A DNA stretch of 64,000 nt from Bacteroidia bacterium (lineage in GTDB: Bacteria; Bacteroidota; Bacteroidia; M30B66): positions 824,682-888,681 of the forward strand of contig OZ257142.1 of NCBI GenBank assembly GCA_965279035.1, in the 5' to 3' direction. The position numbers were made by a program, and so were the translations under genes. The notes below the pieces were generated by a model. It was not told the origin of the DNA and did not search any database. It saw nothing but the letters and a program-made list of their open reading frames with translations. The number at the start of each line of letters is the position of its first letter. Position 1 is the stretch's first letter. Below are positions 7,831-42,749 of this stretch, piece by piece.

Positions 7831-8775
7831 TTAGAATACATCTAAGTCCGCCCCTGTGAACTTCAAAGATAGATTTTGTTCGGGATTTAGCAAATTCTTA
7901 AATACAATTGGAACACCCAATACAAACGGATTTTTTGAGCTAAATAATTTATCTATTTCAGATTCATTCGAGGCACTAATAGTTAATTGATCTAAGCCGA
8001 GTAATGAAGTCAACTTTTTAAGCTTAGTAATAATCTCATTGGCTGAATGATTCTTAGAAAGATCAATATCTCCAATAATTAATGAACCATCGATTTTAGC
8101 CCAAATAGATACCCCTTTCCAAGTGAATTGAAACGATGGATTATAGTGTTTGTATTGATAGTAATCAGCGTCTTTCCAAGCACTGTCATCCTTCGAATTC
8201 ATTTGAGAATTAATAAATGAATCATTGGATTTTGTTGAATTTCTCAATACGAATGAAACCCAAATTTTATATAGAAACTGCAATCTTAATTTTCTAAAAA
8301 TCCGATAGATAGGGATGCCACTATTTTTGAATATATACTGATGAAAATTTCCACTATGATGCCAGTTTAAGCTCCGTGTAAAACCTGGAAATGAATTATC
8401 ATTTGGAAATGCATATAGATAATTCACACCTTCAGCTAATGCTAATTTCTCTGTTTCTCTTCCTAATAATCCAAATAATCCTTTCCGTTGATGTTCTTTA
8501 TGTGTAATGATATCAGCCGATTGTCCTGAAAGTTTTTTTAATCCATCTATTTTTAGAAAGCCAGGAAATAGACAGAAAAACGCGGCAGGAGTGCCATCTT
8601 TTGCATAGGCAAAATGGGCTAAATATGTTTTAGAAGTGTAGGCTGTATTGTATTTATTTTGAAGATATTTTTCTGAAATATCAATGCCTCTCGATTCTTT
8701 AAATAATCGAGATAAGTCTTTTATATTTTCATGGTTTGCTCTTACAATTCGATACTCAGAAGAATCATCATTCAT
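7831..8775 (-). CDS. GNAT-type N-acyltransferase with a ~150-aa C-terminal extension of unknown function
   Basis: 'HKEHQRKGLFGLL' fits the GNAT acyl-CoA binding motif (Q/R-x-x-G-x-G/A). The rest of the protein is unassigned. Confidence 0.5.
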   Translation of the reverse strand: MNDDSSEYRIVRANHENIKDLSRLFKESRGIDISEKYLQNKYNTAYTSKTYLAHFAYAKDGTPAAFFCLFPGFLKIDGLKKLSGQSADIITHKEHQRKGLFGLLGRETEKLALAEGVNYLYAFPNDNSFPGFTRSLNWHHSGNFHQYIFKNSGIPIYRIFRKLRLQFLYKIWVSFVLRNSTKSNDSFINSQMNSKDDSAWKDADYYQYKHYNPSFQFTWKGVSIWAKIDGSLIIGDIDLSKNHSANEIITKLKKLTSLLGLDQLTISASNESEIDKLFSSKNPFVLGVPIVFKNLLNPEQNLSLKFTGADLDVF

Positions 8776-10717: not shown

Positions 10718-11656
10718 TTAAGAACGCGGCAAAGATACAAGCATTTCTCGCCAAAGTTCTTCAATCCCTTTTTCAAGTTCGATTTTGGCTTGCCATCCTG
10801 TAAGTGTATTGATTTTATTGACGTTTAGGATGTTTGTAGGCGTATCTACAGCACGTGATGGGAGATATTTTACGGGAAAGTTTTGTTGAGTTGCTAAACG
10901 TATTTTCTCGAGTACCTCATTCACCGTTGAACCTACTCCTGAACCAATATTTAGAATTTCATTTTGAATTGGATGTTTCAAAATAAATTCAATTCCTCTG
11001 CATAAATCTTGAATGTGAATATAATCTCTTACCACATTTCCATCACCCCAGATTTCAACCGGCTGTTCTTGAATTAACTTTCCTAAAGTAACAGCAATTA
11101 AGCCTTGTTTACCATATAGATTCTGTCCAGATCCATAAGGATTGGAAGGGCGAACAATCACATAATCAAGTCCGAGATTTCTTGATTGGAAACGGATATA
11201 TTCCTCCATAGCCAATTTTGAAAATCCGTAATAATTAATGGGTGCTGTTACTGATGTTTCACTATTTACTTCTTGACCATTATTCCCATAGATAGCGCCA
11301 CCTGTAGAGAAGAACATCAATTTTTTACTTCCATGTTGAAGCATTCCATTTACTAATTCAAATCCAGCAAGTAGATTCAAATCTTGTTCTTTTTGAAAAT
11401 CATTAAATCCGGAGGATGGTATGAGACTACAAGCTAAATGGATAACCCTATCGAATGGACCTTTTTGAAGACATGAATGAAGAAAATGACGATCGGTAAT
11501 GTCTCCAATATATTCGATGTAGGGAAATTCAATTAGCTTATCAGAGGTAAAAGGGAACTTATCGCAAATATGAATTTCATATCCTTCATCGGAAAGATGA
11601 GAAGCGAGATTTCGGCCAATAAAACCGTTACCACCAAGGATGAGAATACGCGACAT
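10718..11656 (-). CDS. NAD-dependent sugar-nucleotide epimerase/dehydratase (extended SDR)
   Basis: Contains the Rossmann motif 'ILILGGNGFIGRNL' and a YxxxK catalytic motif. Confidence 0.8.
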   Translation of the reverse strand: MSRILILGGNGFIGRNLASHLSDEGYEIHICDKFPFTSDKLIEFPYIEYIGDITDRHFLHSCLQKGPFDRVIHLACSLIPSSGFNDFQKEQDLNLLAGFELVNGMLQHGSKKLMFFSTGGAIYGNNGQEVNSETSVTAPINYYGFSKLAMEEYIRFQSRNLGLDYVIVRPSNPYGSGQNLYGKQGLIAVTLGKLIQEQPVEIWGDGNVVRDYIHIQDLCRGIEFILKHPIQNEILNIGSGVGSTVNEVLEKIRLATQQNFPVKYLPSRAVDTPTNILNVNKINTLTGWQAKIELEKGIEELWREMLVSLPRS

Positions 11657-14697: not shown

Positions 14698-16173
14698 TCA
14701 ACTAAAATTCGACATCGATTTCAAAACTCTTTTTTCACGAATGCGAGCTTCAAGTTTTGGTGAAACAGAGATAAATTTTCGAAATAACCTCATAATCAAA
14801 GGAGGTTTGTCGCTTAATACTTCGCCCATAAACATCCCTTTTTCTACATCAATGGATTTGAAATGTTTAAATGGAATTCCAAATGTTTGGATGTAGAATC
14901 CGTATTTCAATGCACCTAATTTGGGCATAGGTTCAATATGATCTTTTATCATCCCACATAATTCTTCATGCGAGTTGGGTTCGTATGTTGAGCCAAGCGA
15001 TTTATAGTAGGAATTAGAAGCTAAAATGGAGGGTTTTCCCCAATATGTTGCTTCAATTCCAGCGGAAGATCCAAATGAAATAGCCTTCTCACTTAAATCC
15101 ATAATCAAATAAGTACTTATTTGAGATTCAGCAGTAATGACTGTTAAATTGGGATAATTGAGCTCGTATAAATCAGTTTTATGATGCGACGTTACCGTTT
15201 TGAAATTGGGATGAATTCTCAAATAAAAATGAAAATTGGAATCATCTTTAAAGCTTTCTACAATCTTTTTTATCCCTGTAATTTGATCAGGATAAATAAT
15301 CTTTTCTTCATCTTGATAAATAGCAGCGAGCTCATCATCCGAAGAATGTAAAATCAGCACATTCCGTTTGTCATTATTCCAATCGGGAGGCAATGTTTTA
15401 ACATGATCTTTCGTAAAAGAGTACCAGTTGGTAATTACTCCGACTCTTCGATTATCGTAGAATTTCTTTCCTTCCTCATTTCGGAATTTCTCATCTGCAT
15501 TTTCCCAAGATTCATTAACTGCACGAAAATTAAAGTCAAGATCAGATATTGCTTCGTTGATTGTGACCGAGTATTTATCTAAAGAACTTCCTCTTTCATG
15601 TAAATAGCAATCAATACCTAATTCTTTACATGCAGTAAAGACAGCCGCTGTATGTGCGAATCGACCACTAAAAGCATATACACGATCGGGTTTTTCCTTC
15701 TTCAATACATTGAGTATAGAATAATAAACACCAGCACTACTAATGATGTAATTCTTGAGTGTTGGCTTAAACTGATCAAGTGATGGACTTGGATCTCGTG
15801 TTATAGCAATGATGGAATTGATAATCCCAAAACCTAAGCGAAAATTCCCAACAGTGAGCTTTCTCAACTCTTCCATTCCACTAATATCTTTAGGAATATT
15901 AGCTATAATGGATTTTTGTTCAGAGTCAAGAGCTGGCAGTGGAATAGAGCGAATTGGTTTTTTTAAGAGTTGCAAACCATGTTGATGTTTTGCTAAACAT
16001 AAATCACATTTCTCCGGAACCATGAATGGATTCAGATCGCAATTTGGAAGTTGAGCATTGCAATAAACTTGAATTATTTCATGTCCTTCATCCGAAAGAT
16101 TCGTGATTAATTCTAGTTCAGTTTCGTAATGCGAAACCCATTGAAGATGTGAATTGAAAAAAAGTATTTTCAT
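14698..16173 (-). CDS. Putative GT-B glycosyltransferase of the KpsS/Capsule_synth-like type (candidate nonulosonic-acid transferase) with an N-terminal Cys cluster
   Basis: 491 aa. Cys pairs lie near the N-terminus ('CNAQLPNC', 'CDLC'). An 'LRIHPNFK' HP-type motif and the overall length resemble the Capsule_synth (KpsS/KpsC/LpsZ) family. The assignment is weak. Confidence 0.35.
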   Translation of the reverse strand: MKILFFNSHLQWVSHYETELELITNLSDEGHEIIQVYCNAQLPNCDLNPFMVPEKCDLCLAKHQHGLQLLKKPIRSIPLPALDSEQKSIIANIPKDISGMEELRKLTVGNFRLGFGIINSIIAITRDPSPSLDQFKPTLKNYIISSAGVYYSILNVLKKEKPDRVYAFSGRFAHTAAVFTACKELGIDCYLHERGSSLDKYSVTINEAISDLDFNFRAVNESWENADEKFRNEEGKKFYDNRRVGVITNWYSFTKDHVKTLPPDWNNDKRNVLILHSSDDELAAIYQDEEKIIYPDQITGIKKIVESFKDDSNFHFYLRIHPNFKTVTSHHKTDLYELNYPNLTVITAESQISTYLIMDLSEKAISFGSSAGIEATYWGKPSILASNSYYKSLGSTYEPNSHEELCGMIKDHIEPMPKLGALKYGFYIQTFGIPFKHFKSIDVEKGMFMGEVLSDKPPLIMRLFRKFISVSPKLEARIREKRVLKSMSNFS

Positions 16174-18816: not shown

Positions 18817-19545
18817 TCATACTTTGAGTAGTTTATTCATTAATTCTTGTTTTGAAATATTTCCACTCATTAATATTTCATAACTCTTTTCTCCGCAATT
18901 AAACATTAAATCAAATACAGTCATATAGGGCTCAAAAGCACCGTATTTCTGAGGATATACAGGATGATTGTAGCTTTGGAAATCGATTTGAATTCCTTCG
19001 TTGTGAAATGAATCCGCATTCGCATAATTTTTTCCTAATGCACCAAAAAGAAATAACTCAGGCTTTACTTTTTTACACATATCCAACACTAAATCTGATT
19101 TTTTCCCTGTTAAATCTAAATCATGACCGTAAAGAATATCTACATGGATATTTAAATCTTTTAAAATAAACCGTAGAATATAATCATTGAGTTCCGCTAA
19201 ATACTCCCAATCCATGCTATATAATTCACGGAAAAATGAAATGTATTTATCGTAATATAAGGTCTTTGAATAATTGTATTCTATCGACCGTAAATGCTTT
19301 TTTTTCCAATTCCGTTTATTGTCAATTTGTAAATCTTGAAGTTTAATATCAATTTTACCATATGTATAAACAGGAACAGTAAGCCAGAGAGGACCTTTAG
19401 AAGTTTTTATTTTATTTCGACTGTTCCAATCTTCTTTCAAATATTGAACAGTATCAAAAACTACATAGGCATCTGAAACGGCAATTTTATGAATCAATCC
19501 ACACCAAGGCAAATAAACTGGTTGATGGGAAGTGAGGATTTTCAT
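18817..19545 (-). CDS. WbqC-family protein (function unknown; recurrent in O-antigen loci)
   Basis: The N-terminus 'ILTSHQPVYLPWCGLIHKI...DAYVVFDTVQY' matches the WbqC-like family signature. Confidence 0.7.
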   Translation of the reverse strand: MKILTSHQPVYLPWCGLIHKIAVSDAYVVFDTVQYLKEDWNSRNKIKTSKGPLWLTVPVYTYGKIDIKLQDLQIDNKRNWKKKHLRSIEYNYSKTLYYDKYISFFRELYSMDWEYLAELNDYILRFILKDLNIHVDILYGHDLDLTGKKSDLVLDMCKKVKPELFLFGALGKNYANADSFHNEGIQIDFQSYNHPVYPQKYGAFEPYMTVFDLMFNCGEKSYEILMSGNISKQELMNKLLKV

Positions 19546-28953: not shown

Positions 28954-30234
28954 TTAAAAATGGTATTCTATATCTGCGGAAAGACTGAAGTAACCGCTCG
29001 TCATCAGGTTTTCATTCCCCGGCAACAAATTTATGACAATAGGAGGTAAGAGATTATCCACCACATCATAAGCTGTTTCGGCACTTTCGAAACCGAGCCA
29101 GTAATAAGTTTCGTAAACTCCAGGATGTAAATTGAGATCAGGAACTACAATATCGAAACTGAATGGAACTCCTACTTGTTGGTTTTGAATTGGGATATTA
29201 AAATTTTGGGTGTAGGTGATAATTTCTCTCGTTCTGCCCGATCTAAAAGCGACAGATGCTAAAATCATGTCCACTTTTTCATTCATAATTACTTCCATCC
29301 GAAACACAGCACGATCGCGCGGAAAAAATTCCACACCACTTGTTCCTTCTTGGTTTAGTACGTCGATTTTAGTAAACCTCACTTGTCCGTTTCCTCTACG
29401 TAATTGAGGGTCATCTAAGCCTTGTCCTTCAGAAATAGAACTCATCATATTATTTCTGATGTATGCTCTAATTACCGATTCTGTTGGACCATCTTGAATT
29501 ATTCTTCCTTGATTGAGGTAGATCGCGCGGGTACATAAATCACTGACAGCACCCATATTATGACTTACGAAAATGACTGTTCGACCTTGAGCCGACACAT
29601 CTTTCATTTTCCCAAGACATTTATTTTGAAATTCTGCATCACCAACAGCAAGCACTTCGTCAATAATCAAAATATCGGGATCAAGGTGAGCTGCAACAGC
29701 AAATGCAAGTCGAACGTACATTCCCGATGAGTAGCGTTTTACAGGAGTATCAACATAACGTTGAACACCCGCAAATTCTACAATAGCATCAAACTTTGCA
29801 CGGATTTCTGAATTTCGCATTCCTAAGATAGCTCCATTCAAAAAGATGTTTTCTCTTCCGGTTAGATCGGGATGGAAACCTGTTCCAACTTCCAATAAAC
29901 TGGCAACTTTCCCTTTGAGTTTTATTTGTCCTTGACTGGGAGTTGTTGTTCTCGAAAGTATCTTGAGTAAGGTTGATTTTCCAGCACCATTTCTACCAAT
30001 CAATCCAACTATCTCCCCTTGATTTATCTCAAAGTTGATATCACGTAAAGCCCAAACATAATCCGAATTTCCACCAGCTGTGCGGTCATTTTCACCCGCT
30101 AATTTTAAGTAAGGATTTTCTTTTCCTTGGAGCTTATACCATGCAGTTCTAAGGTCTTCAGTGAGAGTTGATGATCCAACATCTCCCAAACGGAAAACTT
30201 TCGAAACTTGATCAGCATGGACAACGATTGACAT
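28954..30234 (-). CDS. wzt: ABC transporter ATP-binding protein Wzt (O-antigen/polysaccharide export) with a ~170-aa C-terminal extension
   Basis: Contains Walker A 'GRNGAGKSTLLKIL', the ABC signature and Walker B. The extra C-terminal domain beyond the NBD resembles a Wzt_C glycan-terminus-binding module. Confidence 0.8.
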   Translation of the reverse strand: MSIVVHADQVSKVFRLGDVGSSTLTEDLRTAWYKLQGKENPYLKLAGENDRTAGGNSDYVWALRDINFEINQGEIVGLIGRNGAGKSTLLKILSRTTTPSQGQIKLKGKVASLLEVGTGFHPDLTGRENIFLNGAILGMRNSEIRAKFDAIVEFAGVQRYVDTPVKRYSSGMYVRLAFAVAAHLDPDILIIDEVLAVGDAEFQNKCLGKMKDVSAQGRTVIFVSHNMGAVSDLCTRAIYLNQGRIIQDGPTESVIRAYIRNNMMSSISEGQGLDDPQLRRGNGQVRFTKIDVLNQEGTSGVEFFPRDRAVFRMEVIMNEKVDMILASVAFRSGRTREIITYTQNFNIPIQNQQVGVPFSFDIVVPDLNLHPGVYETYYWLGFESAETAYDVVDNLLPPIVINLLPGNENLMTSGYFSLSADIEYHF

Positions 30235-30254: not shown

Positions 30255-31112
30255 TTAAACAGTATCCATGAAATTCCTTTCGGTTCGGTTGAATAATATG
30301 AGTCCGATGATCATACTAACAACAGCAAAAACCAAGGTGTAACCTAACATGAGCCAATTGATTGAATCGCATCCTAAAAAAATATATCGGATAGATTCAA
30401 TAACCGGAGTGATTGGATTGACAGTCAAAATCCAATGCAATTTCGGTGGGAATATGGAAGCTGGGTAAATTACTGGAGTTGCATACATCAGCAATTGTAC
30501 AGCGAAAGGCACCATATTACTAAGATCGCGGTATTTTGTAGTTAAGGACGAAATGATGATTCCGAAAGCCAGTCCAATAAACATCATGAGCAAAAGCAAA
30601 AACGGAAGAAGCCAGATGTATGCATATTGAGTATGTACATTTCCATCTTTTATTTGGAAAAATACAATGGCAGCGATGAGAACGAGCAATTGAATTCCAA
30701 ACTTAATCATGGCTGAAACCACCGATGATAATGGAACAATTAATCGTGGGAAATACACTTTACCAAAGATGCTTGCATTGGCTCTAAATGTTGTTGCTGT
30801 TCTGCTAATGCAATCGGCAAAATAGCCCCATGCAGTTAAGCCTGCTAAATAAAATAAAACGCGATTCGTTCCATCTGTTGATACATTGGCTATCAATCCA
30901 AATAAAACAAAATAGATAACCGTATTGAGGATAGGAGGGAGGATGAACCAAAAAACTCCCAGCAAAGTTTGTTTGTATACAGTTATTATATCACGACGAA
31001 CAAGAAGGAATAATAAATCACGATATGCCCAAAGTTCCTTAAGCTTTAGATCAAATAGTCCACCGTATGGACGAATGATCAAATCCCAGTCTTTGTCAGA
31101 ATTGCTGCTCAT
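30255..31112 (-). CDS. wzm: ABC-2 type polysaccharide export permease Wzm
   Basis: Six predicted TM helices. Adjacent to wzt. Confidence 0.75.
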   Translation of the reverse strand: MSSNSDKDWDLIIRPYGGLFDLKLKELWAYRDLLFLLVRRDIITVYKQTLLGVFWFILPPILNTVIYFVLFGLIANVSTDGTNRVLFYLAGLTAWGYFADCISRTATTFRANASIFGKVYFPRLIVPLSSVVSAMIKFGIQLLVLIAAIVFFQIKDGNVHTQYAYIWLLPFLLLLMMFIGLAFGIIISSLTTKYRDLSNMVPFAVQLLMYATPVIYPASIFPPKLHWILTVNPITPVIESIRYIFLGCDSINWLMLGYTLVFAVVSMIIGLILFNRTERNFMDTV

Positions 31113-31181: not shown

Positions 31182-32114
31182 CTAGGTAAGAAGCAAGTTT
31201 TGAACTTCAAGATAGGTTTCTCGGATACCTGTTTCTAGGTTTGTTTTAGGTGCCCAACCCAACGAACGAAGTCGGCTACTGTCCATTAATTTCCGTGGTG
31301 TTCCATCGGGTTTTGAGCTATCGAACCGAATTTCACCTTCATAACCAACAATGTCTTTGATGAGGAATGCTAAATCTTTAATGCTGATATCTTCGCCATA
31401 GCCTATATTAACAAAGAGTTCTTCAGAATAATTTTGCAGTAGAAATACACAAGCATCTGCTAAATCATCTACGTACATAAATTCCCGAAGCGGAGATCCG
31501 GTTCCCCAGAGTTCAACGAAACTGGCATTATTTACCTTGGCAGTATTCATTTTTCTTAATAATGCAGGCAATACGTGCGAGTTTTGTAAATCATAATTGT
31601 CGTTTTTTCCATACAAATTCGTTGGCATTGCTGATATAAAATCGCATCCATATTGCCGACGATAGCTTTCGCACATTTTTATTCCAGCAATTTTAGCAAT
31701 CGCATAAGGTTCGTTCGTTTGCTCTAAAAAACCGGATAGTAAACTCTCTTCTTTTAAAGGTTGTTCAGCTAATTTTGGGTAAATGCACGACGAACCTAGG
31801 AATAAAAGTTTTTTCACTCCCGATTTCCAAGAGGTATGAATAACGTTGCTTTCAATAGCGAGATTATCGTAAAGAAATTCAGCGCGATAGGTATTATTGG
31901 CCATGATGCCGCCCACTTTGGCTGCAGCGAGAACAACGATTTCAGGTTTTTCTCGATCAAAGAACGACTCCACTTCCACTTGTCTTCTCAAATCCAATTC
32001 TTTGGAAGTTGCTCCAATTAAATTTGAATAACCTTGGTTAGAAAGTGTTCTCCAAATGGCAGAACCTACCATTCCACGATGTCCTGCGATGAATATTTTA
32101 CTTGATTTCTCCAC
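31182..32114 (-). CDS. fcl: GDP-L-fucose synthase (GDP-4-keto-6-deoxymannose 3,5-epimerase/4-reductase)
   Basis: 310 aa. 'KIFIAGHRGMVGSAI' and the remainder are collinear with Fcl. Confidence 0.85.
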   Translation of the reverse strand: MEKSSKIFIAGHRGMVGSAIWRTLSNQGYSNLIGATSKELDLRRQVEVESFFDREKPEIVVLAAAKVGGIMANNTYRAEFLYDNLAIESNVIHTSWKSGVKKLLFLGSSCIYPKLAEQPLKEESLLSGFLEQTNEPYAIAKIAGIKMCESYRRQYGCDFISAMPTNLYGKNDNYDLQNSHVLPALLRKMNTAKVNNASFVELWGTGSPLREFMYVDDLADACVFLLQNYSEELFVNIGYGEDISIKDLAFLIKDIVGYEGEIRFDSSKPDGTPRKLMDSSRLRSLGWAPKTNLETGIRETYLEVQNLLLT

Positions 32115-32972: not shown

Positions 32973-33635
32973 ATGGAATTCTTAGCCTCACTTCTCGATT
33001 TTATTCTGCATATAAATGCTCATCTGGATCAACTTGTACTTGATTATGGGAATTCAATTTATGCCATTCTTTTCTTAATCATCTTTGTTGAAACCGGATT
33101 GGTAGTGATGCCATTTCTACCGGGTGATTCACTTTTATTCGCTGCAGGAGCGCTATGTGCAAGACCGAATTCTGAATTAAGTTTATTCATACTTATCGCT
33201 TTGTTATTTCTTGCAGCTGTATTAGGTGATAATCTAAATTATACCATTGGTCGCTTTGCAGGTTCTAAAGTTGTAAACTGGAAATTCAGAGGGAAGAATT
33301 TGGTGAAACAAACCTATATCGATCAAACACATAGTTTCTTTGAAAAATATGGAACCAAAGCCATTATTATGGCTCGATTTGTACCCATTGTTAGAACGTT
33401 TACTCCTTTTGTAGCTGGAGTTGGACAAATGGATTATCGTAAAAAATTCCTCCCATTTGATCTAGCAGGAGGGTTTCTTTGGATTTGTTCAATGACACTT
33501 GCCGGCTTCTTTTTAGGAAACTTGGATTTCTTTCAAAAACACTTTGAAGCTGTTGTAATTGGAATCGTATTACTTTCCATTACTCCAATGATCTTTACGT
33601 TTTTAAAACATCGGTTTTCAACAAAAAGCGCCTAA
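32973..33635 (+). CDS. dedA: DedA family (VTT/SNARE-associated) inner-membrane protein
   Basis: Contains 'VVMPFLPGDSLLFAAGAL' and 4-5 TM helices. Confidence 0.8.
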   Translation: MEFLASLLDFILHINAHLDQLVLDYGNSIYAILFLIIFVETGLVVMPFLPGDSLLFAAGALCARPNSELSLFILIALLFLAAVLGDNLNYTIGRFAGSKVVNWKFRGKNLVKQTYIDQTHSFFEKYGTKAIIMARFVPIVRTFTPFVAGVGQMDYRKKFLPFDLAGGFLWICSMTLAGFFLGNLDFFQKHFEAVVIGIVLLSITPMIFTFLKHRFSTKSA

Positions 33636-33654: not shown

Positions 33655-35013
33655 TCAAATAGCTTTTTGTGTTGCTTCAATTTTAGCTTTTATCCATTCA
33701 CTTGTAATTGAACCTGGACGTTCAATGGGTAATCCCATTGCTCTGCTAATGGTTAATTGAGCAAGAACTCCAAGGGCGCGGGAAACACCAAACAAAGCGG
33801 TAAAAAAGTCGTATTCTTTAATCCCATAATGTATCAACAATGCTCCCGAATGAGCATCTACATTGGGCCAAGGATTTTGAATCTTTTTTATGTTATTTAA
33901 TATTTCAGGAACAACTTCATACACAAGCCAAACGATATTTACGATATCATCATCGGGCATGTATTTTTTAGCAAATTCCATTTGAGCTGTAAAGCGAGGG
34001 TCTGTTTTACGTAATACAGCATGTCCATATCCTGGAACAACCTTGCCTTCGGCTAATGTTTTATTGACGTATTGAATAATCTGTTCTTTTGTTGGAAGTC
34101 CACCACCCAATTCTTTTTGTAATTCAAGAATCCAGCGAATAACTTCTTGATTTGCTAAACCGTGAAGTGGTCCAGCTAAGCCATTCAATCCTGCTGAAAA
34201 TGAATAATAAGCATCACTCAATGCCGAACCAACTAAATGCGTTGCGTGTGCCGATACATTTCCTCCTTCATGATCTGCATGAATGGTTAAGTACAAGCGC
34301 ATTAATTCTGCTACTTCATGGCTGTCATAACCCATCATGTGAGCAAAATTAGCTGACCAATCAGCTCCTTTTAATGGTTCAATTTGAACATTATTATGAT
34401 ATGTTCTTCTATATATGTAGGAAGCAACTCTTGGCAAACGAGCAATCAAATTCATGGAATCTTCAAACATCGGATCCCAATACTCCTTTTTATTTATCCC
34501 TTTTTCATATTCGTGCGCAAAAACCGATTCTGTACGCATTGCCAAAACAGCCGCACTTAGCTGAGTCATTGGATGCGTATAGGTAGGAAATGCATCCAGC
34601 ATTTTAAATACGTGATCAGGAACAGTACTTCTTGATTCCCATTCTTTACTTAAATCGGATACTTGTTGCTCAGTAGGAAGTTCCCCTGTTATCATCAAGT
34701 AAAAAATTCCTTCGGGTAATGGTTCTATTCCACCAGGTGCTTTTGGTAATAGATTTCTTAATTCAGGAATGCTATATCCTCTAAATCGAATGCCTTCTTC
34801 AGGATCTAATTTGGAGGTTTCGGTAATCATCCCAACCATCCCTTTCATTCCCGAGTAGACCTGCGCTAGAGTTATTTCGCCAATTTTTAATGTTCCATGA
34901 TCGCTAATCATTGACTTTAAACTAGCAGCATGTGGGAGTACTTTTTCTGAAATTCGGGACTTTAAATTGGATGACATACGTTGATTGAAATGATACGAAT
35001 TGAATATCGCCAC
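33655..35013 (-). CDS. gltA: Citrate synthase
   Basis: Contains 'HADHEGGNVSAHATHLVGSALSD' and 'GYGHAVLRKTDPR'. The true start may be the internal Met at ~34977. Confidence 0.85.
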   Translation of the reverse strand: MAIFNSYHFNQRMSSNLKSRISEKVLPHAASLKSMISDHGTLKIGEITLAQVYSGMKGMVGMITETSKLDPEEGIRFRGYSIPELRNLLPKAPGGIEPLPEGIFYLMITGELPTEQQVSDLSKEWESRSTVPDHVFKMLDAFPTYTHPMTQLSAAVLAMRTESVFAHEYEKGINKKEYWDPMFEDSMNLIARLPRVASYIYRRTYHNNVQIEPLKGADWSANFAHMMGYDSHEVAELMRLYLTIHADHEGGNVSAHATHLVGSALSDAYYSFSAGLNGLAGPLHGLANQEVIRWILELQKELGGGLPTKEQIIQYVNKTLAEGKVVPGYGHAVLRKTDPRFTAQMEFAKKYMPDDDIVNIVWLVYEVVPEILNNIKKIQNPWPNVDAHSGALLIHYGIKEYDFFTALFGVSRALGVLAQLTISRAMGLPIERPGSITSEWIKAKIEATQKAI

Positions 35014-35227
35014 AAGTATACAGAATTCGTTTCGCGATTTAAAATAAATGTATTTAAACGCCCTGTTGAATAAAAGGTTTACAATGTGTTCTTAATTCAT
35101 CATCAGGCACATTTAGCTTTAAGCTGATTTACGTTTCACTTCTTTATTTATGAATTTTAAAATCATAAATATGAATGAACCAAGAGATTAAAATTGAAGA
35201 ATAGCTCTATCATACTTAGAGCTTATT

Positions 35228-37177
35228 TTATTCCCGAATATGTTTCTGAAATAATTCTTCCAATTCTTGATCTGTTAAATTGTTAACGGTATAAAGCGAG
35301 TCTCCATCGGCAAAAAAACTAGCATTAATTTTTCTTGAAAAAGAAGTTAAGCTTGCTCCTGTTAATTCTTGATTTGAATTTTTGAGATAGTAATACAATT
35401 CATTCTGCTTTATAAGGTATTGATCTACTGAGTTTAACTTGTTCTCAGGTTGAATGAAATAGGATATGTCAATGTTTATAGCATCTTTATAATTAGGAAG
35501 CAATTGAAGATAAAAATGGCTATTTCGATAATAAGAATCAAGAAAAGAAATGTTTGTTTTTTCAAGTCCACTTGCTTTATAAAGGCCTATGATCGGACCT
35601 TTATTACATTCTGAAATAGCATTTAAATTCTTATTTTTCAAGGATGCACTAAGCTGATTATAAGGTGCATTTGATTTTTTTTCATGTGTTAAATTGAAGT
35701 ACGAATGCCATATTCCAAAAAGAATAAGTAGAACAGGTATGGTAATTTTATGGGTTGATGTAGGAGAGGATTCATAAAGTGCTTTACTAATTTCAAAAGC
35801 AATGAGCAGAATTAATATTGGAATTGAATTATAAAAAAATTGACCATTATCAAGAATCCCAACACTCAATCCAACAGCCATTAAGCCTCCAAGCATGGAA
35901 GAAATCATCACGATACTACTAGTGAGAAGTGTCTTTATTTTATGAAATCGTAAATAAATGAGAATCCCCAAATAAGGCAGGAAAAACAGGAAAAATCTTA
36001 GTCCGGAAAAAAATGCTGAAAAGAAAAATGTTTTAAAAAGTGCAATAGTAGGCTGATGAATTAACCTGGAAATGAGTGCTGTATCTGATAATGTATTATT
36101 GAGTTCACTTAAGCCATTCAACGAATAGTAAATTCCAATAAAGCCAATGATTAATACTTGGTTTGTATAAATAGGAATTAGATTCTTCCATCCAATTTTT
36201 TTAGAAAACACTAAATAGATAGGAAATAAAACTTCAATAGCACAAACCGATGGAAGGCAACCGATTGAAAAGATAGGAATGATGGATAATAAAAGCAGGA
36301 ATTCAACATATTTTTCCTTTTGATAATAGTAGAATATTGAAATAGCAGCAATGAGATAAATTAAAACATATTTTTTCCCAAACGTCATAAAGAACCCCGT
36401 TTGAGTAATACCATCGAAATATTTCAATAATTCAGAAGAGTTATAAAATGGAAAATAAAATCCTGAAATTGTTAGAATTGATACTGCGATGAGTGCTGTT
36501 CGAAATCGAAATAATTGCTTGCTTTCTCCAACGGATAAAAGGAAAATGGAAGAACAAGTAATGGCTTTGAGTAAAGGAAATGTAGAAAATAATAGAAGCT
36601 TAACAGAAGATGCTCCAGTCATTTTAACAAGAATTCCGTTCACCCATAATTCTGGATAATGATAAGGTTGTCGAACTCCTGTTGCATTTTCAATCAATTG
36701 GTTTAATAGGAAGAGTCTATTTTCTGCGCCATATTCAACCATGTATTTTGACAATTTTCCATAATACAGGAAATCAAAATGTGGAACATCAGTTATAATC
36801 CCCAATTCAGAATTGTAATATTTAATAAATTCTAAAAAAGAAAAAAGCACAGTAATTCCCCAAACAGCAAGAGTTTTAAGGAGAATAGGTTTAATAGGGA
36901 ATCCTGAAAATGAAGGTGAAAATTGAATGCGATATTTTGAATGAATACCAATGATTAATAATGGGATGAATAAACCGAGTAAAACAGTATTGCCAATAGT
37001 AAAAACCAGCGCAATTGCTGTAATTGTAAAAAGTGTTCCCCAAAAGATTTTTCTAGCAAATAAACTTGACTTATTCGTTTCGTTTTGATTGAAATCTTGA
37101 ATAATGATTGATCCAAAGACAATGATTATCAAAAGTAAAATCGCACTATATGCTTGATAAACAATAAAATCTAACAT
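35228..37177 (-). CDS. Polytopic integral membrane protein (>=12 TM helices with a ~170-aa C-terminal soluble domain); possible GT-C-type glycosyltransferase or polymerase
   Basis: Hydrophobicity pattern only. It is divergently paired with the aminotransferase, acetyltransferase and ArnC-like operon. Confidence 0.4.
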   Translation of the reverse strand: MLDFIVYQAYSAILLLIIIVFGSIIIQDFNQNETNKSSLFARKIFWGTLFTITAIALVFTIGNTVLLGLFIPLLIIGIHSKYRIQFSPSFSGFPIKPILLKTLAVWGITVLFSFLEFIKYYNSELGIITDVPHFDFLYYGKLSKYMVEYGAENRLFLLNQLIENATGVRQPYHYPELWVNGILVKMTGASSVKLLLFSTFPLLKAITCSSIFLLSVGESKQLFRFRTALIAVSILTISGFYFPFYNSSELLKYFDGITQTGFFMTFGKKYVLIYLIAAISIFYYYQKEKYVEFLLLLSIIPIFSIGCLPSVCAIEVLFPIYLVFSKKIGWKNLIPIYTNQVLIIGFIGIYYSLNGLSELNNTLSDTALISRLIHQPTIALFKTFFFSAFFSGLRFFLFFLPYLGILIYLRFHKIKTLLTSSIVMISSMLGGLMAVGLSVGILDNGQFFYNSIPILILLIAFEISKALYESSPTSTHKITIPVLLILFGIWHSYFNLTHEKKSNAPYNQLSASLKNKNLNAISECNKGPIIGLYKASGLEKTNISFLDSYYRNSHFYLQLLPNYKDAINIDISYFIQPENKLNSVDQYLIKQNELYYYLKNSNQELTGASLTSFSRKINASFFADGDSLYTVNNLTDQELEELFQKHIRE

Positions 37178-37503
37178 TTTATTTATTCAGATGCTTGTTA
37201 TTTGCTCAAAAATAAACTTTTATCAGTTCTAATTCTTCGAAGAATCCTTAGCATTTTTCATATCTAAGCACTATTTATATTGAATCCTATATCAAATAAT
37301 ATCTAATGCATTAAAATATGTGCGAACTATAATATCACTATAAAAAGCATTATCACTCTTGTAATTTCTTTTTAAATTAATTTCTTCCAAAAAAGAATTT
37401 CTAATCTAATTTGATCCGCATGTGAATATTCTAAATTCAAATAAATCTCTGCGATTCCAATGAATATTGAAACAAGCAGAGAAGATTATATATTTGTGCA
37501 TCA

Positions 37504-38610
37504 TTGACTAATTCATCCTTTTCATTAATGATTAATGTTACTAAGTCATTCCTGCCAGATTTGGAGGAATATGTAAGCTATCTGAAAGGTATTTGGGAAC
37601 GTGGCCATTTAACGAATCACGGTCCACTAGTCAACGAATTGGAAAAAAAAATTCGCGAATATTTAGGTGTTAAACATTTTTATTTCGTTAATAACGGAAC
37701 TATTGCACTTCAAATAGCCATCAAAGCGGCAGACCTTCGTGGAGATATTATCACAACACCATTTTCCTATGTAGCTACTACTAGTTGTATCGTTTGGGAG
37801 AATTGCAATCCAGTTTTTGCTGATATTGATGCCAATACCTTAACCGTTACAGCCGAAACCATTGAACGTGTTATTACTCCACAAACAACAGGTATTCTTG
37901 TTACGCATGTTTATGGAAATCCTTGTCCGGTTGAAGAAATAAATGAACTTGCGAAGAAGCACGGATTGAAAGTAATTTATGATGCGGCTCATGCTTTTGG
38001 TGTTCAGTATAAAAATACATCTGTTCTCAATTTTGGTGATATTTCAACATTGAGTTTTCATGCGACTAAGTTGTTTCATACAATTGAAGGAGGCGGTATT
38101 GTAACAAATGATGATGAACTGGCACATCGTATTAGTTACATGCGCAATTTTGGTCATAATGGGCCGGAGGCTTTTTTTGGTGTTGGAGTCAATGGAAAAA
38201 GTTCAGAATTCCAAGCTGCAATGGGCTTGTGTTTATTGCCAAAGATTGAGCAAATTATTCAAGCTAGAAAAACGCTTTCGGAACAGTATGTTGAAAATCT
38301 GAAGGATTTGCCAATCCAATTTCTACAAAAGCAAGACGGTGTAACAAAATACAATTATGCCTATTTCCCAATTGTTTTTAAGTCAGAAGAAATTGTCTTA
38401 AAAATTATTGCTGCATTAAATCAAAATGAAGTTGTTCCAAGAAGATATTTTTATCCTTCACTCAATACATTGAATTACGTTACAAATAATTTGAAGGATG
38501 ATGTGGCAACAGAGATTTCTAAACGAGTGCTCTGCTTGCCTTTATATCCCGAATTAACTGAAGAGCAAATTATTTTCATTTCAACTATTATTCGTTCCCA
38601 ATTATGTTAA
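37504..38610 (+). CDS. DegT/DnrJ/EryC1/StrS-family sugar aminotransferase (PLP-dependent)
   Basis: Contains 'NGTIALQIA', 'DAAHAFG' and the 'SFHATK' PLP-lysine region. Confidence 0.8.
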   Translation: MTNSSFSLMINVTKSFLPDLEEYVSYLKGIWERGHLTNHGPLVNELEKKIREYLGVKHFYFVNNGTIALQIAIKAADLRGDIITTPFSYVATTSCIVWENCNPVFADIDANTLTVTAETIERVITPQTTGILVTHVYGNPCPVEEINELAKKHGLKVIYDAAHAFGVQYKNTSVLNFGDISTLSFHATKLFHTIEGGGIVTNDDELAHRISYMRNFGHNGPEAFFGVGVNGKSSEFQAAMGLCLLPKIEQIIQARKTLSEQYVENLKDLPIQFLQKQDGVTKYNYAYFPIVFKSEEIVLKIIAALNQNEVVPRRYFYPSLNTLNYVTNNLKDDVATEISKRVLCLPLYPELTEEQIIFISTIIRSQLC

Positions 38611-39221
38611 TTGTTGGAGCAGGCGGATTTGCGAAGCAGCTTCTTCCTGTTATCGAACACTTAGGACTAAGTGATCAAGTAACATTCTATGATGATTATA
38701 GTAATGATACTTCTTCCTTAATTTCAAGAAATTTTCATGTAATACGGAACGAGGAACAATTAAGAAATTATTTTTCTAAAGGTGATTTCCGTTTTGTAAA
38801 TGCACTTGGAGGACCTTCAAAACGCTATGAAATTCATCAAAAAATTGTGGCACTAGGAGGTATTCCAACAAATTTGATTGATCCCAATACTCGAATTTCA
38901 CAATACGAAGTTAAGATTGGGATTGGTTGCTGTATTTTGCAAGATGTGATTATTGAACCTTGCGCTCAATTGGGTGATGGCTGTTTGATTAATCTAAAAT
39001 CAATGATTACACATGATACAATCATTGGGAACTTCACTGAAATTTCACCTGGAGTAACTTTATTGGGCGCTTCAAAGATTGGCAATTTTGTTTTTATTGG
39101 AGCTGGTGCGATTGTATTACCCAAGATTGAAATTGGTGATCATTGTGTGATTGGTGCTGGTGCTGTTGTAAACCGTTCTGTACCTTCGGGGCATCGTGTA
39201 GTTGGTGTTCCTGCTCGTTAA
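38604..39221 (+). CDS. NeuD/PglD-family sugar N-acetyltransferase (left-handed beta-helix)
   Basis: Contains the N-terminal 'LIVGAGGFAKQL' Rossmann-like domain and C-terminal hexapeptide repeats 'IGAGAIV...IGDHCVIGAGAVV'. Confidence 0.75.
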   Translation: MLIVGAGGFAKQLLPVIEHLGLSDQVTFYDDYSNDTSSLISRNFHVIRNEEQLRNYFSKGDFRFVNALGGPSKRYEIHQKIVALGGIPTNLIDPNTRISQYEVKIGIGCCILQDVIIEPCAQLGDGCLINLKSMITHDTIIGNFTEISPGVTLLGASKIGNFVFIGAGAIVLPKIEIGDHCVIGAGAVVNRSVPSGHRVVGVPAR

Positions 39222-39230
39222 TTTTTAAAT

Positions 39231-40172
39231 ATGCGTTTACTCTCTTTTATACTTCCCGTTTTTCGAAACAAAGGTTCAATTAGTATCACATGCGAGAAAA
39301 TTTCTGAGTTAATGAGGGAATCTCATTCTGATCTTGACTTTGAGATTATTCTGATTAATGATGGTTCTGATGATGGGTCATGGGAGGAAATAAATCAAGT
39401 ATGTGAGTTAAATACGAGCACTAAAGCACTCTCTTTTTCAAGAAATTTCGGACAAGTTCCCGCGATTATTGCTGGTGCTCAATATTGTAAAGGAGATGCA
39501 GCCATCATTATGTCTGCCGATTTACAAGATCCAGTAAGCTTAATTTCTGACATGATTGCTGCTTGGAAGGAGTCTAGCCAGATTGCAGTATGTTATCGTA
39601 TGGATAGAGAAGATTCGGCACTTGCCAATTTAACATCAGCCGTGTTTTATCGGTTTATGAAAATTGCTAATCCGATGATGCCAAAAGGGGGGTTTGATTT
39701 TGTTTTACTTGATAGAGCGGCTATCGATGTTTTTGCAGCCATCGATGAACGTAATCGTTTCTTTCAAGGGGATATTTTGTGGATGGGATTTAATATTCGC
39801 TTTATTCCCTATAAAAGAATAAAACGGACCATCGGAAAATCACAATGGAGTTTTGGAAAGAAATTAAAATACTTTATTGATGGGGCATTGAATACTTCCT
39901 ATATGCCTATTCGGTTTATGTCAATCGTTGGGATTAGTATCGCTTTTATAGGATTTATCTACGCCTTAGTTGTCATTTATGCGAGAATGATAAATCAAAT
40001 TCCGTTTAAAGGATACGCTCCGATTGTCATCTTAATTCTAGTAATCGGTGGAATGATTATGATCATGTTGGGAATCATCGGCGAATACCTATGGCGGATT
40101 TACGATGAAACTAGGAAAAGGCCTATTTACATTGTAAAGGAAAAGGCCGGTAATTGGGAAGATTCGAAATAA
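39231..40172 (+). CDS. Polyprenyl-phosphate glycosyltransferase, GT2 (ArnC/GtrB/DPM1-like) with two C-terminal TM helices
   Basis: Contains 'ILINDGSDDGS', 'RNFGQ', 'DLQDP' and a C-terminal TM pair ending 'GEYLWRIY'. Confidence 0.8.
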   Translation: MRLLSFILPVFRNKGSISITCEKISELMRESHSDLDFEIILINDGSDDGSWEEINQVCELNTSTKALSFSRNFGQVPAIIAGAQYCKGDAAIIMSADLQDPVSLISDMIAAWKESSQIAVCYRMDREDSALANLTSAVFYRFMKIANPMMPKGGFDFVLLDRAAIDVFAAIDERNRFFQGDILWMGFNIRFIPYKRIKRTIGKSQWSFGKKLKYFIDGALNTSYMPIRFMSIVGISIAFIGFIYALVVIYARMINQIPFKGYAPIVILILVIGGMIMIMLGIIGEYLWRIYDETRKRPIYIVKEKAGNWEDSK

Positions 40173-40264
40173 TCAATCTCTATAAATAAAACAGTCGTAA
40201 TCTCTCATGAAATTACGTCTGTTTTTATAAGGACTTGACTCGATTTCAGGATAGAATAGGTTTT

Positions 40265-42696
<2,432 letters not shown>

Positions 42697-42714
42697 TTTA
42701 CGAGGCACAAGTTC

Positions 42715-42749
42715 AAAAAAAAAGGATAAAACCAATTGGCCTTATCCTT
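42715..42749 (-). terminator. Intrinsic terminator of the ribosomal/rpoA/rplQ operon
   Basis: Stem ggataa/ttatcc with a palindromic loop, followed on the minus strand by a run of 9 T. It lies 27 nt downstream of the rplQ stop. Confidence 0.5.

Follow-up and report, generated by a model that had tools for sequence, protein, structure and literature searches.

A 649-residue polytopic membrane protein encoded in a Bacteroidia bacterium (GTDB lineage M30B66) is modelled confidently as a GT-C fold enzyme, and its gene faces, across a divergent intergenic region, a tight operon for an aminotransferase, an N-acetyltransferase and a glycosyltransferase of the type that loads sugars onto a polyprenyl phosphate. 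The window, i.e., the whole stretch analysed, is 64,000 nucleotides of contig OZ257142.1 (positions 824,682 to 888,681 of the forward strand; assembly GCA_965279035.1), and positions below are those of the window unless a locus is named. The GT-C gene lies at 35228-37177 on the minus strand, and 326 bp of AT-rich DNA (37178-37503) separate it from the plus-strand genes. These specify a 368-aa DegT/DnrJ/EryC1 nucleotide-sugar aminotransferase dependent on pyridoxal phosphate (PLP; 37504-38610, PF01041), a 205-aa NeuD/PglB/VioB left-handed beta-helix N-acetyltransferase (38604-39221, TIGR03570) and a 313-aa GtrB/ArnC-type polyprenyl-phosphate glycosyltransferase of family GT2 (39231-40172, PF00535). 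Together the four would probably form a four-step, lipid-carrier-dependent module for extracytoplasmic glycosylation, a reading that we favour with some reserve.

The four open reading frames (ORFs) were found exactly where the original prediction, made from the letters of the DNA, had placed them, and are regarded as real genes because such lengths are not expected by chance at the 31-36% G+C of this DNA and because orthologs are conserved, those of the membrane protein at 72-73% identity. Within the operon the aminotransferase and acetyltransferase genes overlap by 7 nt, and 9 nt lie between the latter and the GT2 gene. The three operon enzymes belong, unremarkably, to large families; what is new is the GT-C family.

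The membrane protein and its family

How isolated is the membrane protein? It has no match in Pfam or NCBIfam, and 64 relatives have none in Pfam at E<=0.1. Searches of PDB sequences with profiles of 10 and 64 sequences returned noise only (designed transmembrane (TM) helices and AcrIIC4, E >= 0.01). A homolog search with the 64-sequence profile gave 14 proteins, none of them named, and no family member carries a source name beyond ‘hypothetical protein’. Only 11 clusters came from a word-indexed homolog search, and 872 representatives at 50% identity came from an exhaustive hidden Markov model (HMM) search at E<=1e-3, with 462 of them reaching 1e-10; nearly all are 620-680 aa long. As sampled the family is confined to Bacteroidota, in metagenome-assembled genomes (MAGs) of Flavobacteriales, Bacteroidales and Marinilabiliales, with genes for domains of the type IX secretion system among the neighbours. 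Close relatives of the window's protein come from Flavobacteriales MAGs, and a scan of viral contigs yielded no relatives.

The structural model was built with AlphaFold2 from the 64-sequence alignment, an attempt with 10 sequences having been discarded at a pLDDT of 49. Set against solved GT-C enzymes it gave its top values with ALG12 (13.4), AftA (12.8), ArnT (11.4), PIG-M (10.5) and AglB (9.2), further values with ALG6, Pmt2 and ALG9 (8.8 each), AftB (8.6), PIG-U/GAB1 (8.5) and ALG3 (8.4), and lower ones with Pmt4 and AftD (8.1 each) and PglB (7.2). Polyprenyl-monophosphate monosaccharides are the donors of the four best-matching enzymes, as would suit a partner of GtrB type. With Foldseek the probability was 1.0 for ALG12, STT3A/B and PglB and at most 0.12 for transporters, the TM-scores to GT-C structures being modest, at about 0.37. 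The original prediction had set a transporter or a Wzy-like model against its suggestion of a possible GT-C fold; by fold and HMM the protein is not a Wzy, a WaaL or a transporter, and the matches to solved GT-C enzymes bear the suggestion out. On this modelled fold it is a member of the GT-C superfamily, of an undescribed family that has no Pfam or NCBIfam model and no detectable sequence similarity to solved GT-C enzymes. Assignment to the ArnT/PMT family (PF02366, PF13231; CAZy GT83/GT39) was considered and rejected, neither the protein nor its 64 relatives giving an HMM match. Alignment to ArnT with hhalign was not significant, the probability being 1.6% with one E. coli sequence and 2.8% with an 11-sequence enterobacterial profile, for which the ArnT homologs, among the matches listed, were all at least 76% identical.

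When net loop charge is averaged over the 64 family members, with helices taken from the model, the odd loops (1, 3, 5, 7, 9, 11 and 13) are positive, at +1.0 to +2.75, and loops 4, 6, 10 and 12 are negative, at -2.7, -0.86, -0.39 and -0.72. From this alternation 14 TM helices with both termini periplasmic are predicted, in keeping with an initial count of at least 12. Three residues, D135, E152 and K269, are invariant across the 64 sequences, even though identity to the window's protein is 16-37%; G150, P171, Y172, H173, Y174, W178, Y351, P401, Q446 and F613 are conserved in at least 90%, and residues 171-178 form a near-invariant motif, P-Y-H-Y-x-E-x-W. On the predicted periplasmic face are a 70-residue loop (121-190), which holds the PYHYxExW motif as well as D135 and E152, and two further residues, Q446 and K269, the latter where TM7 ends on the outer side; residues from about 500 to 649 are predicted to fold as a 150-residue periplasmic alpha/beta domain. 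An acidic motif in a periplasmic loop had been proposed as a check on the fold, and D135 and E152 are the invariant acidic pair of the first large predicted outer loop. Acidic residues there, together with a basic residue for the lipid phosphate, would be the arrangement expected of a GT-C active site.

The operon and its association with the GT-C family

The aminotransferase matches PF01041 with 301.7 bits against a gathering score of 19.8, and DesI has the same PLP-lysine motif, SFHATK, at the aligned position, so that the DegT family claimed for it holds. Its best NCBIfam model is DesI, with 273 bits against a cut-off of 650; PseC (198 against 423.5), LegC (185 against 420), WecE-type (164 against 375) and ArnB (153.8 against 631) also fall short. 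With every NCBIfam cut-off missed, equivalence to DesI, PseC, LegC, ArnB or WecE was rejected. Its closest relatives of known structure are DesI (2PO3, 7e-52), a sugar transaminase (7B0D) and perosamine synthases (1.6e-41). The acetyltransferase was likewise correctly recognised as being of NeuD/PglD type: it passes TIGR03570 (NeuD/PglB/VioB) with 191.4 bits against a cut-off of 160.8, has PglD_N (41.9 bits) and Hexapep (64.9 bits) domains, and aligns end to end with the acetyltransferase domain of Neisseria PglB (4M98, 8.5e-22), VioB (7TXP, 6e-19), PglD and PerB. Its His137 lies opposite a His of VioB, of the PglB domain and of the IEHEC motif of PglD, the last of which we take to be the catalytic residue. 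As DesI, perosamine synthase, the PglB domain, VioB, PglD and PerB act on 4-amino-4,6-dideoxyhexoses, an N-acetylated nucleotide 4-amino sugar, the product originally envisaged, is the best reading of what these two enzymes may make.

In the third protein an N-terminal GT-A domain (PF00535, Glycos_transf_2) is followed by two C-terminal TM helices. Residues 4-305 align with residues 28-329 of Synechocystis GtrB (5EKP, E 2.5e-53), TM pair included, and three ArnC structures (9HWJ among them) align similarly at about 3e-29. The GT2 with a C-terminal TM pair that had been foreseen is thus seen at full length, through the helices. Equivalog cut-offs are missed, with 214.1 of 500 bits for PgfS, the best NCBIfam match, and 121.7 of 529 for ArnC, one of the HMMs that had been proposed as a check. 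By its full-length homology the protein is a GtrB/ArnC-type polyprenyl-phosphate glycosyltransferase.

Is the proximity of these genes to the GT-C gene a local accident? From genome, metagenome and exact-match look-ups, 97 loci with a family member were assembled and searched with HMMs for three targets: the GT-C, the GtrB-type GT2 over its whole length (C-terminal TM region included) and the DegT aminotransferase. Counts are based on the 50 loci flanked by 6 kb or more. A GtrB-type GT2 is present in 26 of the 50 (in 17 within 2.5 kb of the GT-C gene), a DegT aminotransferase also in 26 (in 20 within 2.5 kb), and one or the other in 32. Ten of 32 GT2 genes are no more than 100 bp from the GT-C gene, against 0.97 expected with uniform placement in the available flanks (Poisson P = 8e-8), and 12 of 35 aminotransferase genes are equally close, several overlapping the GT-C start (L007, L008, L011).

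The gene orders are instructive. In L005, from a Bacteroidales MAG, the co-directional genes are Wzx, GT4, ATP-grasp, PF01522 deacetylase, aminotransferase (44% identity), Hexapep protein, GT2 (47%) and two successive GT-Cs, and the order aminotransferase, acetyltransferase, GT2, GT-C is again co-directional in L009. L012 has aminotransferase, WbqC, epimerase, ATP-grasp, metallophosphoesterase, GT2 (58%), GT-C and GT4, with aminotransferase, GT2 and GT-C co-directional, and L002 has carA, GT-C (34%), a WbpB-like oxidoreductase, two hexapeptide acyltransferases, aminotransferase and GT2, a set that resembles a 3-amino-sugar route. What stays constant is the pair of GtrB-type GT2 and GT-C, usually joined by an aminotransferase; the tailoring enzymes differ from locus to locus. 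The more closely related the genome, the more similar the GT-C: L002 is the closest in GT-C and synteny, but distant in aminotransferase and GT2. The similarities of the last two covary (395 and 406 bits, respectively, between window and L012; 326 and 289 bits between window and L005). That the GT-C tracks the genome while aminotransferase and GT2 go together points to an exchange of donor-sugar cassettes around a transferase that stays in place. Full-length GT-C paralogs also occur in tandem, with five in a row in L083 (427-10136), three in L052 and two each in L099, L005 and L011, and L066/L086 has an array of an aminotransferase, a short GT2, one GT-C, a gap and three more GT-Cs; such expansion implies diversified acceptor or linkage specificity. 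Elsewhere, a distant member (P0283, in L020, 5410-8426) is preceded not by a GT2 but by transketolase-N-like, zinc alcohol dehydrogenase and Orn/DAP/Arg decarboxylase-like proteins, a neighbourhood that may reflect a different donor chemistry.

The divergent arrangement itself recurs at the locus of a 72%-identity ortholog (L003), there too beside gltA, DedA, Ham1, Fcl, Wzm and Wzt. On alignment with that locus the only conserved block of the intergenic region is ATTATATATTTGTGCAT, which holds a Bacteroidota-type -7 element, TAnnTTTG, at 37489-37496 ahead of the operon; from its match to the known Bacteroidetes consensus this box would be a promoter element of the operon. A sigma-70 promoter scan gave 26 sites against 26.2 expected in shuffles, the sigma-70 model being uninformative for a Bacteroidota genome, and an Rfam scan of the module gave no match. 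The listed aminotransferase start, TTG at 37504, is only 7 nt past the box, and translation more plausibly begins at an in-frame ATG, at 37528; the protein as read from the TTG has no exact-sequence match in the protein collection.

Proposed mechanism, alternatives and known counterparts

In the scheme proposed, the cytoplasmic DegT aminotransferase would, as its family assignment indicates, aminate a keto-sugar supplied from elsewhere in nucleotide-activated form. This substrate is most likely a 4-keto-6-deoxyhexose or 4-keto-6-deoxy-N-acetylhexosamine, and the resulting amino sugar would be N-acetylated by the NeuD/PglD-type enzyme. The GT2, judged by its full-length homology to GtrB and ArnC, would load the sugar onto undecaprenyl phosphate at the inner face of the membrane, and the lipid-linked sugar would then be flipped to the periplasmic face. 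There the GT-C, as its modelled fold suggests, would move the monosaccharide to an acceptor. Its active site would bring together D135 and E152, from the first large loop on the periplasmic side, and K269, where TM7 reaches the periplasm; the acceptor is probably bound with the help of the C-terminal periplasmic domain.

What, then, is decorated? The most likely acceptor is a surface polysaccharide, here the product of the neighbouring Wzm/Wzt locus, which would receive side chains after polymerisation. Gene neighbourhood makes this a tentative attribution that may well be mistaken. It is made because glycan loci with genes for GT4, GT2, Wzx or acyltransferases surround many family members (L005, L010, L012, L021), because tandem arrays of two to five paralogs fit multiple acceptor positions better than a single lipid A site, because the gene is within a few kb of a Wzm/Wzt locus in the window and in relatives (L001, L003), and because the C-terminal periplasmic domain recalls the carbohydrate-binding domain of the GT136 founder (PMC11127046).

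Several points weigh against the four-step module. The correspondence of D135 and E176 to catalytic-loop residues of ArnT comes from the non-significant hhalign alignment, in which P132/D135/Y139/S143/G150 fall opposite ‘qP-DEtrYaeiS..G’ and Y174-x-E176..W178-x-N180 opposite ‘RYFEKP..W-I-N’ of ArnT, and which serves as a lead only. The metal/nucleotide motif of the GT2 is S-A-D-L-Q-D-P (residues 95-101), where GtrB and ArnC have D-A-D-L-Q. About half of the family loci lack a GtrB-type GT2 in the sequence available, and in L004 the GT-C gene, a 33% relative, stands alone between carA and eno without the operon. No flippase gene (GtrA, ArnE/F, Wzx or MATE) was found in the module or the 64-kb window with all small ORFs searched, and the operon has no enzyme forming the keto-sugar.

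On all but the first of these there is something to add. The second Asp of the GT2 motif (D97) and Q99 are invariant in 9 sequences, and at the first position Ser is shared by the window, L012 and L005, with Tyr at this place in L002; L012 and L005 also hold the aminotransferases closest to the window's, and the Ser variant may mark a donor-specific GT2 subclade. From L004 and the GT2-less loci it appears that the partner can be encoded elsewhere, as in many GT-C systems. DedA proteins are implicated in undecaprenyl phosphate translocation and recycling, and the window's only small polytopic membrane protein ORF is of the DedA family (VTT domain; 32973-33635, plus strand), with 248.7 bits on NF008102 against a cut-off of 236 and only about 52 bits on UptA models. 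In related genomes too its gene is near the GT-C gene, and in L001 (1217-1906) the two are direct neighbours. A role for it as an accessory that recycles or translocates undecaprenyl phosphate for the module is conjectural. The absence of an adjacent 4,6-dehydratase had been remarked on from the outset, and none is adjacent, but the window does hold a PseB-type UDP-N-acetylglucosamine 4,6-dehydratase (27930-28934, minus strand; 510 bits against an equivalog cut-off of 408). It is the window's only 4,6-dehydratase and lies within a nonulosonic-acid gene set; a search of the window for Gmd or RmlB-type dehydratases gave only it and a GalE-like epimerase (10718-11656). An Fcl gene (31182-32114), together with the known GDP-fucose pathway, implies that GDP-4-keto-6-deoxymannose is made somewhere in the genome.

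Might lipid A or core be the acceptor instead, much as in Arn systems? The N-acetyl group would then be transient, being removed on the carrier by a PF01522/ArnD- or PIG-L-type deacetylase encoded elsewhere, and the GT-C would add a cationic amino sugar, changing surface charge and resistance to cationic peptides. A PF01522 deacetylase among the genes of L005 speaks for this reading, but the module has none, and the two candidates in the window are 18-28 kb off, in the glycan locus, with likely uses of their own. Lipid A modifiers, moreover, are not usually embedded in polysaccharide loci or arrayed in tandem, the scores on ArnB and ArnC fall short of the equivalog cut-offs, and no ArnT/PMT HMM matches; we consider this alternative unlikely, if still a serious one. 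Transfer to Ser/Thr residues of proteins in the periplasm or at the surface, as by PMT or the streptococcal Pgf enzymes, or periplasmic extension of the Bacteroidota O-glycan, is highly improbable: the PgfS score is far under the 500-bit cut-off, a family of about 870 clusters at 50% identity that is missing from many loci is unlike a phylum-wide general system, and the neighbourhoods are of polysaccharide type, with nothing tying the family to the lfg O-glycosylation loci.

A functional split within the operon is a further alternative. Aminotransferase and acetyltransferase, acting like LegC and LegH, would feed a 2,4-diacetamido-2,4,6-trideoxyhexose to the neighbouring nonulosonic-acid pathway, leaving GT2 and GT-C to use a common sugar such as glucose or N-acetylglucosamine. 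That neighbouring locus has PseB, PseC, a NeuB/PseI-like synthase, a PseG-like GT28 and a cytidylyltransferase with no obvious PseH/LegH-type acetyltransferase, and the aminotransferase does score 198 and 185 bits on the PseC and LegC models. Yet the locus has its own PseC above cut-off, the three operon genes overlap or nearly abut behind one promoter region, the association of aminotransferase, GT2 and GT-C recurs in unrelated loci devoid of nonulosonic-acid genes, and aminotransferase and GT2 similarity rise and fall together across loci; a split is very unlikely. That the 649-aa protein is no glycosyltransferase at all, and rather a transporter, an O-antigen polymerase or ligase, or a structural membrane protein, draws on its lack of sequence similarity to any characterised protein and on the modest Foldseek TM-scores, and is scarcely credible in view of the fold matches.

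The four-step module can be set beside known systems. The Arn, Lgm and Gtr logic with which it was originally credited stands as to way of working, given the GT-C fold, the GtrB/ArnC-type GT2 and the recurrent GT2 and aminotransferase linkage, and does not stand as to family membership, the ArnB, ArnC, DesI and PgfS cut-offs being missed and ArnT/PMT models not matching. Compared with ArnB/ArnC/ArnT of E. coli and Salmonella, it has no ArnA (dehydrogenase/decarboxylase/formyltransferase), ArnD or ArnE/F-like gene, and the amino group would be acetylated by the NeuD/PglD-type enzyme and not formylated. Its GT-C, unlike ArnT, is predicted to have 14 TM helices with the N-terminus outside and matches no ArnT/PMT HMM; the sugar is probably a 6-deoxyhexose derivative and the acceptor more probably a polysaccharide. 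With GtrA/GtrB/GtrC of Shigella and Salmonella phages and with Synechocystis GtrB it shares a GT2 closest to GtrB among solved structures, the pairing of a conserved lipid-sugar synthase with a variable polytopic transferase, and a likely post-polymerisation decoration of a surface glycan. It differs in having no GtrA flippase in the window, in a donor that would be an N-acetyl-amino sugar made by dedicated enzymes and not UDP-glucose, in the S-A-D in place of the D-A-D motif, and in a GT-C family that is not phage-borne, no viral-contig relatives having been found.

A further counterpart is the three-component pentofuranose system of Citrobacter youngae (ORF12-15), which founds GT136 (Kelly et al. 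2024, PMC11127046). There also a lipid-linked monosaccharide is the donor of an extracytoplasmic side chain, in that case on the lipopolysaccharide O antigen; the transferase is of a newly defined GT-C family and has a C-terminal domain that binds the acceptor, and the sugar is varied by auxiliary enzymes. The likeness is one of description, and that system has a polyprenyl-phosphoribose synthase, a MATE flippase and pentofuranoses in place of amino sugars. Streptococcus mutans Pgf (PgfS, PgfM1, PgfE, PgfM2) and GacI/GacL-type systems likewise have a synthase of GtrB type that works with polytopic GT-C transferases, along with an enzyme that modifies the sugar, and differ in their Gram-positive hosts, in their protein or rhamnose-polysaccharide acceptors and in having no aminotransferase or acetyltransferase. 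The two-enzyme route to an N-acetylated 4-amino-4,6-dideoxyhexose has parallels in PglE/PglD (for N,N'-diacetylbacillosamine), VioA/VioB (for 4-acetamido-4,6-dideoxyglucose, Qui4NAc) and Per/PerB (for N-acetylperosamine), whose products go to cytoplasmic Leloir or phosphoglycosyl transferases and not to GtrB-type loading of undecaprenyl phosphate.

Genomic setting and significance

The module is flanked by gltA (citrate synthase, 33655-35013) and eno (enolase, 40265-41551), the latter followed by carA, L17, rpoA and ribosomal-protein operons, and so sits among housekeeping genes, as was initially stated. The accompanying statement, that it is outside the large glycan locus, makes too little of how near that locus is, as Fcl, marking the end of the Wzm/Wzt locus, is only about 3 kb away, and in L001 the GT-C gene is nearer still, with Ham1 alone between it and Fcl. 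Within the syntenic region L17-carA-eno ... gltA-DedA-Ham1-Fcl-Wzm-Wzt (window 33655-42735 compared with L001-L004) the slot of the GT-C gene varies, being eno/gltA in the window and L003, DedA/Ham1 in L001, directly after carA in L002 and carA/eno in L004, which points to repeated local insertion or replacement.

The glycan locus (4187-32114, minus strand, about 28 kb) depends on an ATP-binding cassette transporter, comprising Wzm (30255-31112, minus strand) and Wzt with a Wzt_C domain (28954-30234, minus strand). Besides PseB its sugar genes encode PseC (above cut-off), a short-chain dehydrogenase/reductase, an aldo-keto reductase, a cytidylyltransferase, a metallophosphoesterase, an ATP-grasp protein, a GT28-like (PseG-like) protein and a NeuB/PseI-like synthase; the rest are two methyltransferases, WbqC, PIG-L, four GT2s, one GT11 (fucosyltransferase-like), two GT4s, the PF01522 deacetylase and Fcl. 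This content suggests a nonulosonic-acid- and fucose-containing polysaccharide with unusual N-acyl decorations. WbqC, ATP-grasp and metallophosphoesterase (18817-19545, 22452-23390 and 23393-24094) recur as a trio in L012 (2834-6003), directly between the aminotransferase and the GT2/GT-C pair, which suggests a conserved cassette for N-acylation, possibly aminoacylation, of amino sugars. Two minus-strand ORFs of the locus (7831-8775, 314 aa; 14698-16173, 491 aa) have no Pfam match, the longer none in NCBIfam either, and are candidates for undescribed glycan-assembly proteins. At the edge of the window a PKD-domain protein with a CHU_C type IX secretion signal (27-1025) and a formiminotransferase-cyclodeaminase (1081-2775) are unrelated to the module; the secretion signal confirms that the host belongs to Bacteroidota.

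Periplasmic glycosylation from lipid carriers underlies the conversion of O-antigen serotypes, resistance to polymyxin and the decoration of cell walls. The mechanism proposed here is the expected one and no concept is overturned; new GT-C families are still being described (GT136, 2024). A bolder reading, speculative and in our judgement unlikely, is that the GT-C founds an unrecognised, Bacteroidota-only GT-C family for amino sugars, a functional analog of ArnT beyond sequence recognition; in its boldest form the N-acetyl group would be removed on the carrier and cationic or amino-acylated sugars placed on lipopolysaccharide or periplasmic glycoconjugates. If true, this would be a surface-charge or antigen-diversifying system new to Bacteroidota, and the family would be a candidate for one of the periplasmic glycosylation activities still missing there. 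According to a 2025 review (PMC12871550), the oligosaccharyltransferase, the ligase and the core-glycan flippase of Bacteroidota O-glycosylation are undiscovered. For a phylum whose periplasmic glycoconjugate-assembly enzymes are largely unknown the module is a concrete candidate, and its GT-C family offers a structural model, three invariant candidate catalytic residues and a consistent partnership with GtrB-type and amino-sugar genes. Defining that family would improve the annotation of many ‘hypothetical’ membrane proteins and add a GT-C family for amino-sugar transfer, and the family may explain the structural heterogeneity of flavobacterial surface polysaccharides.

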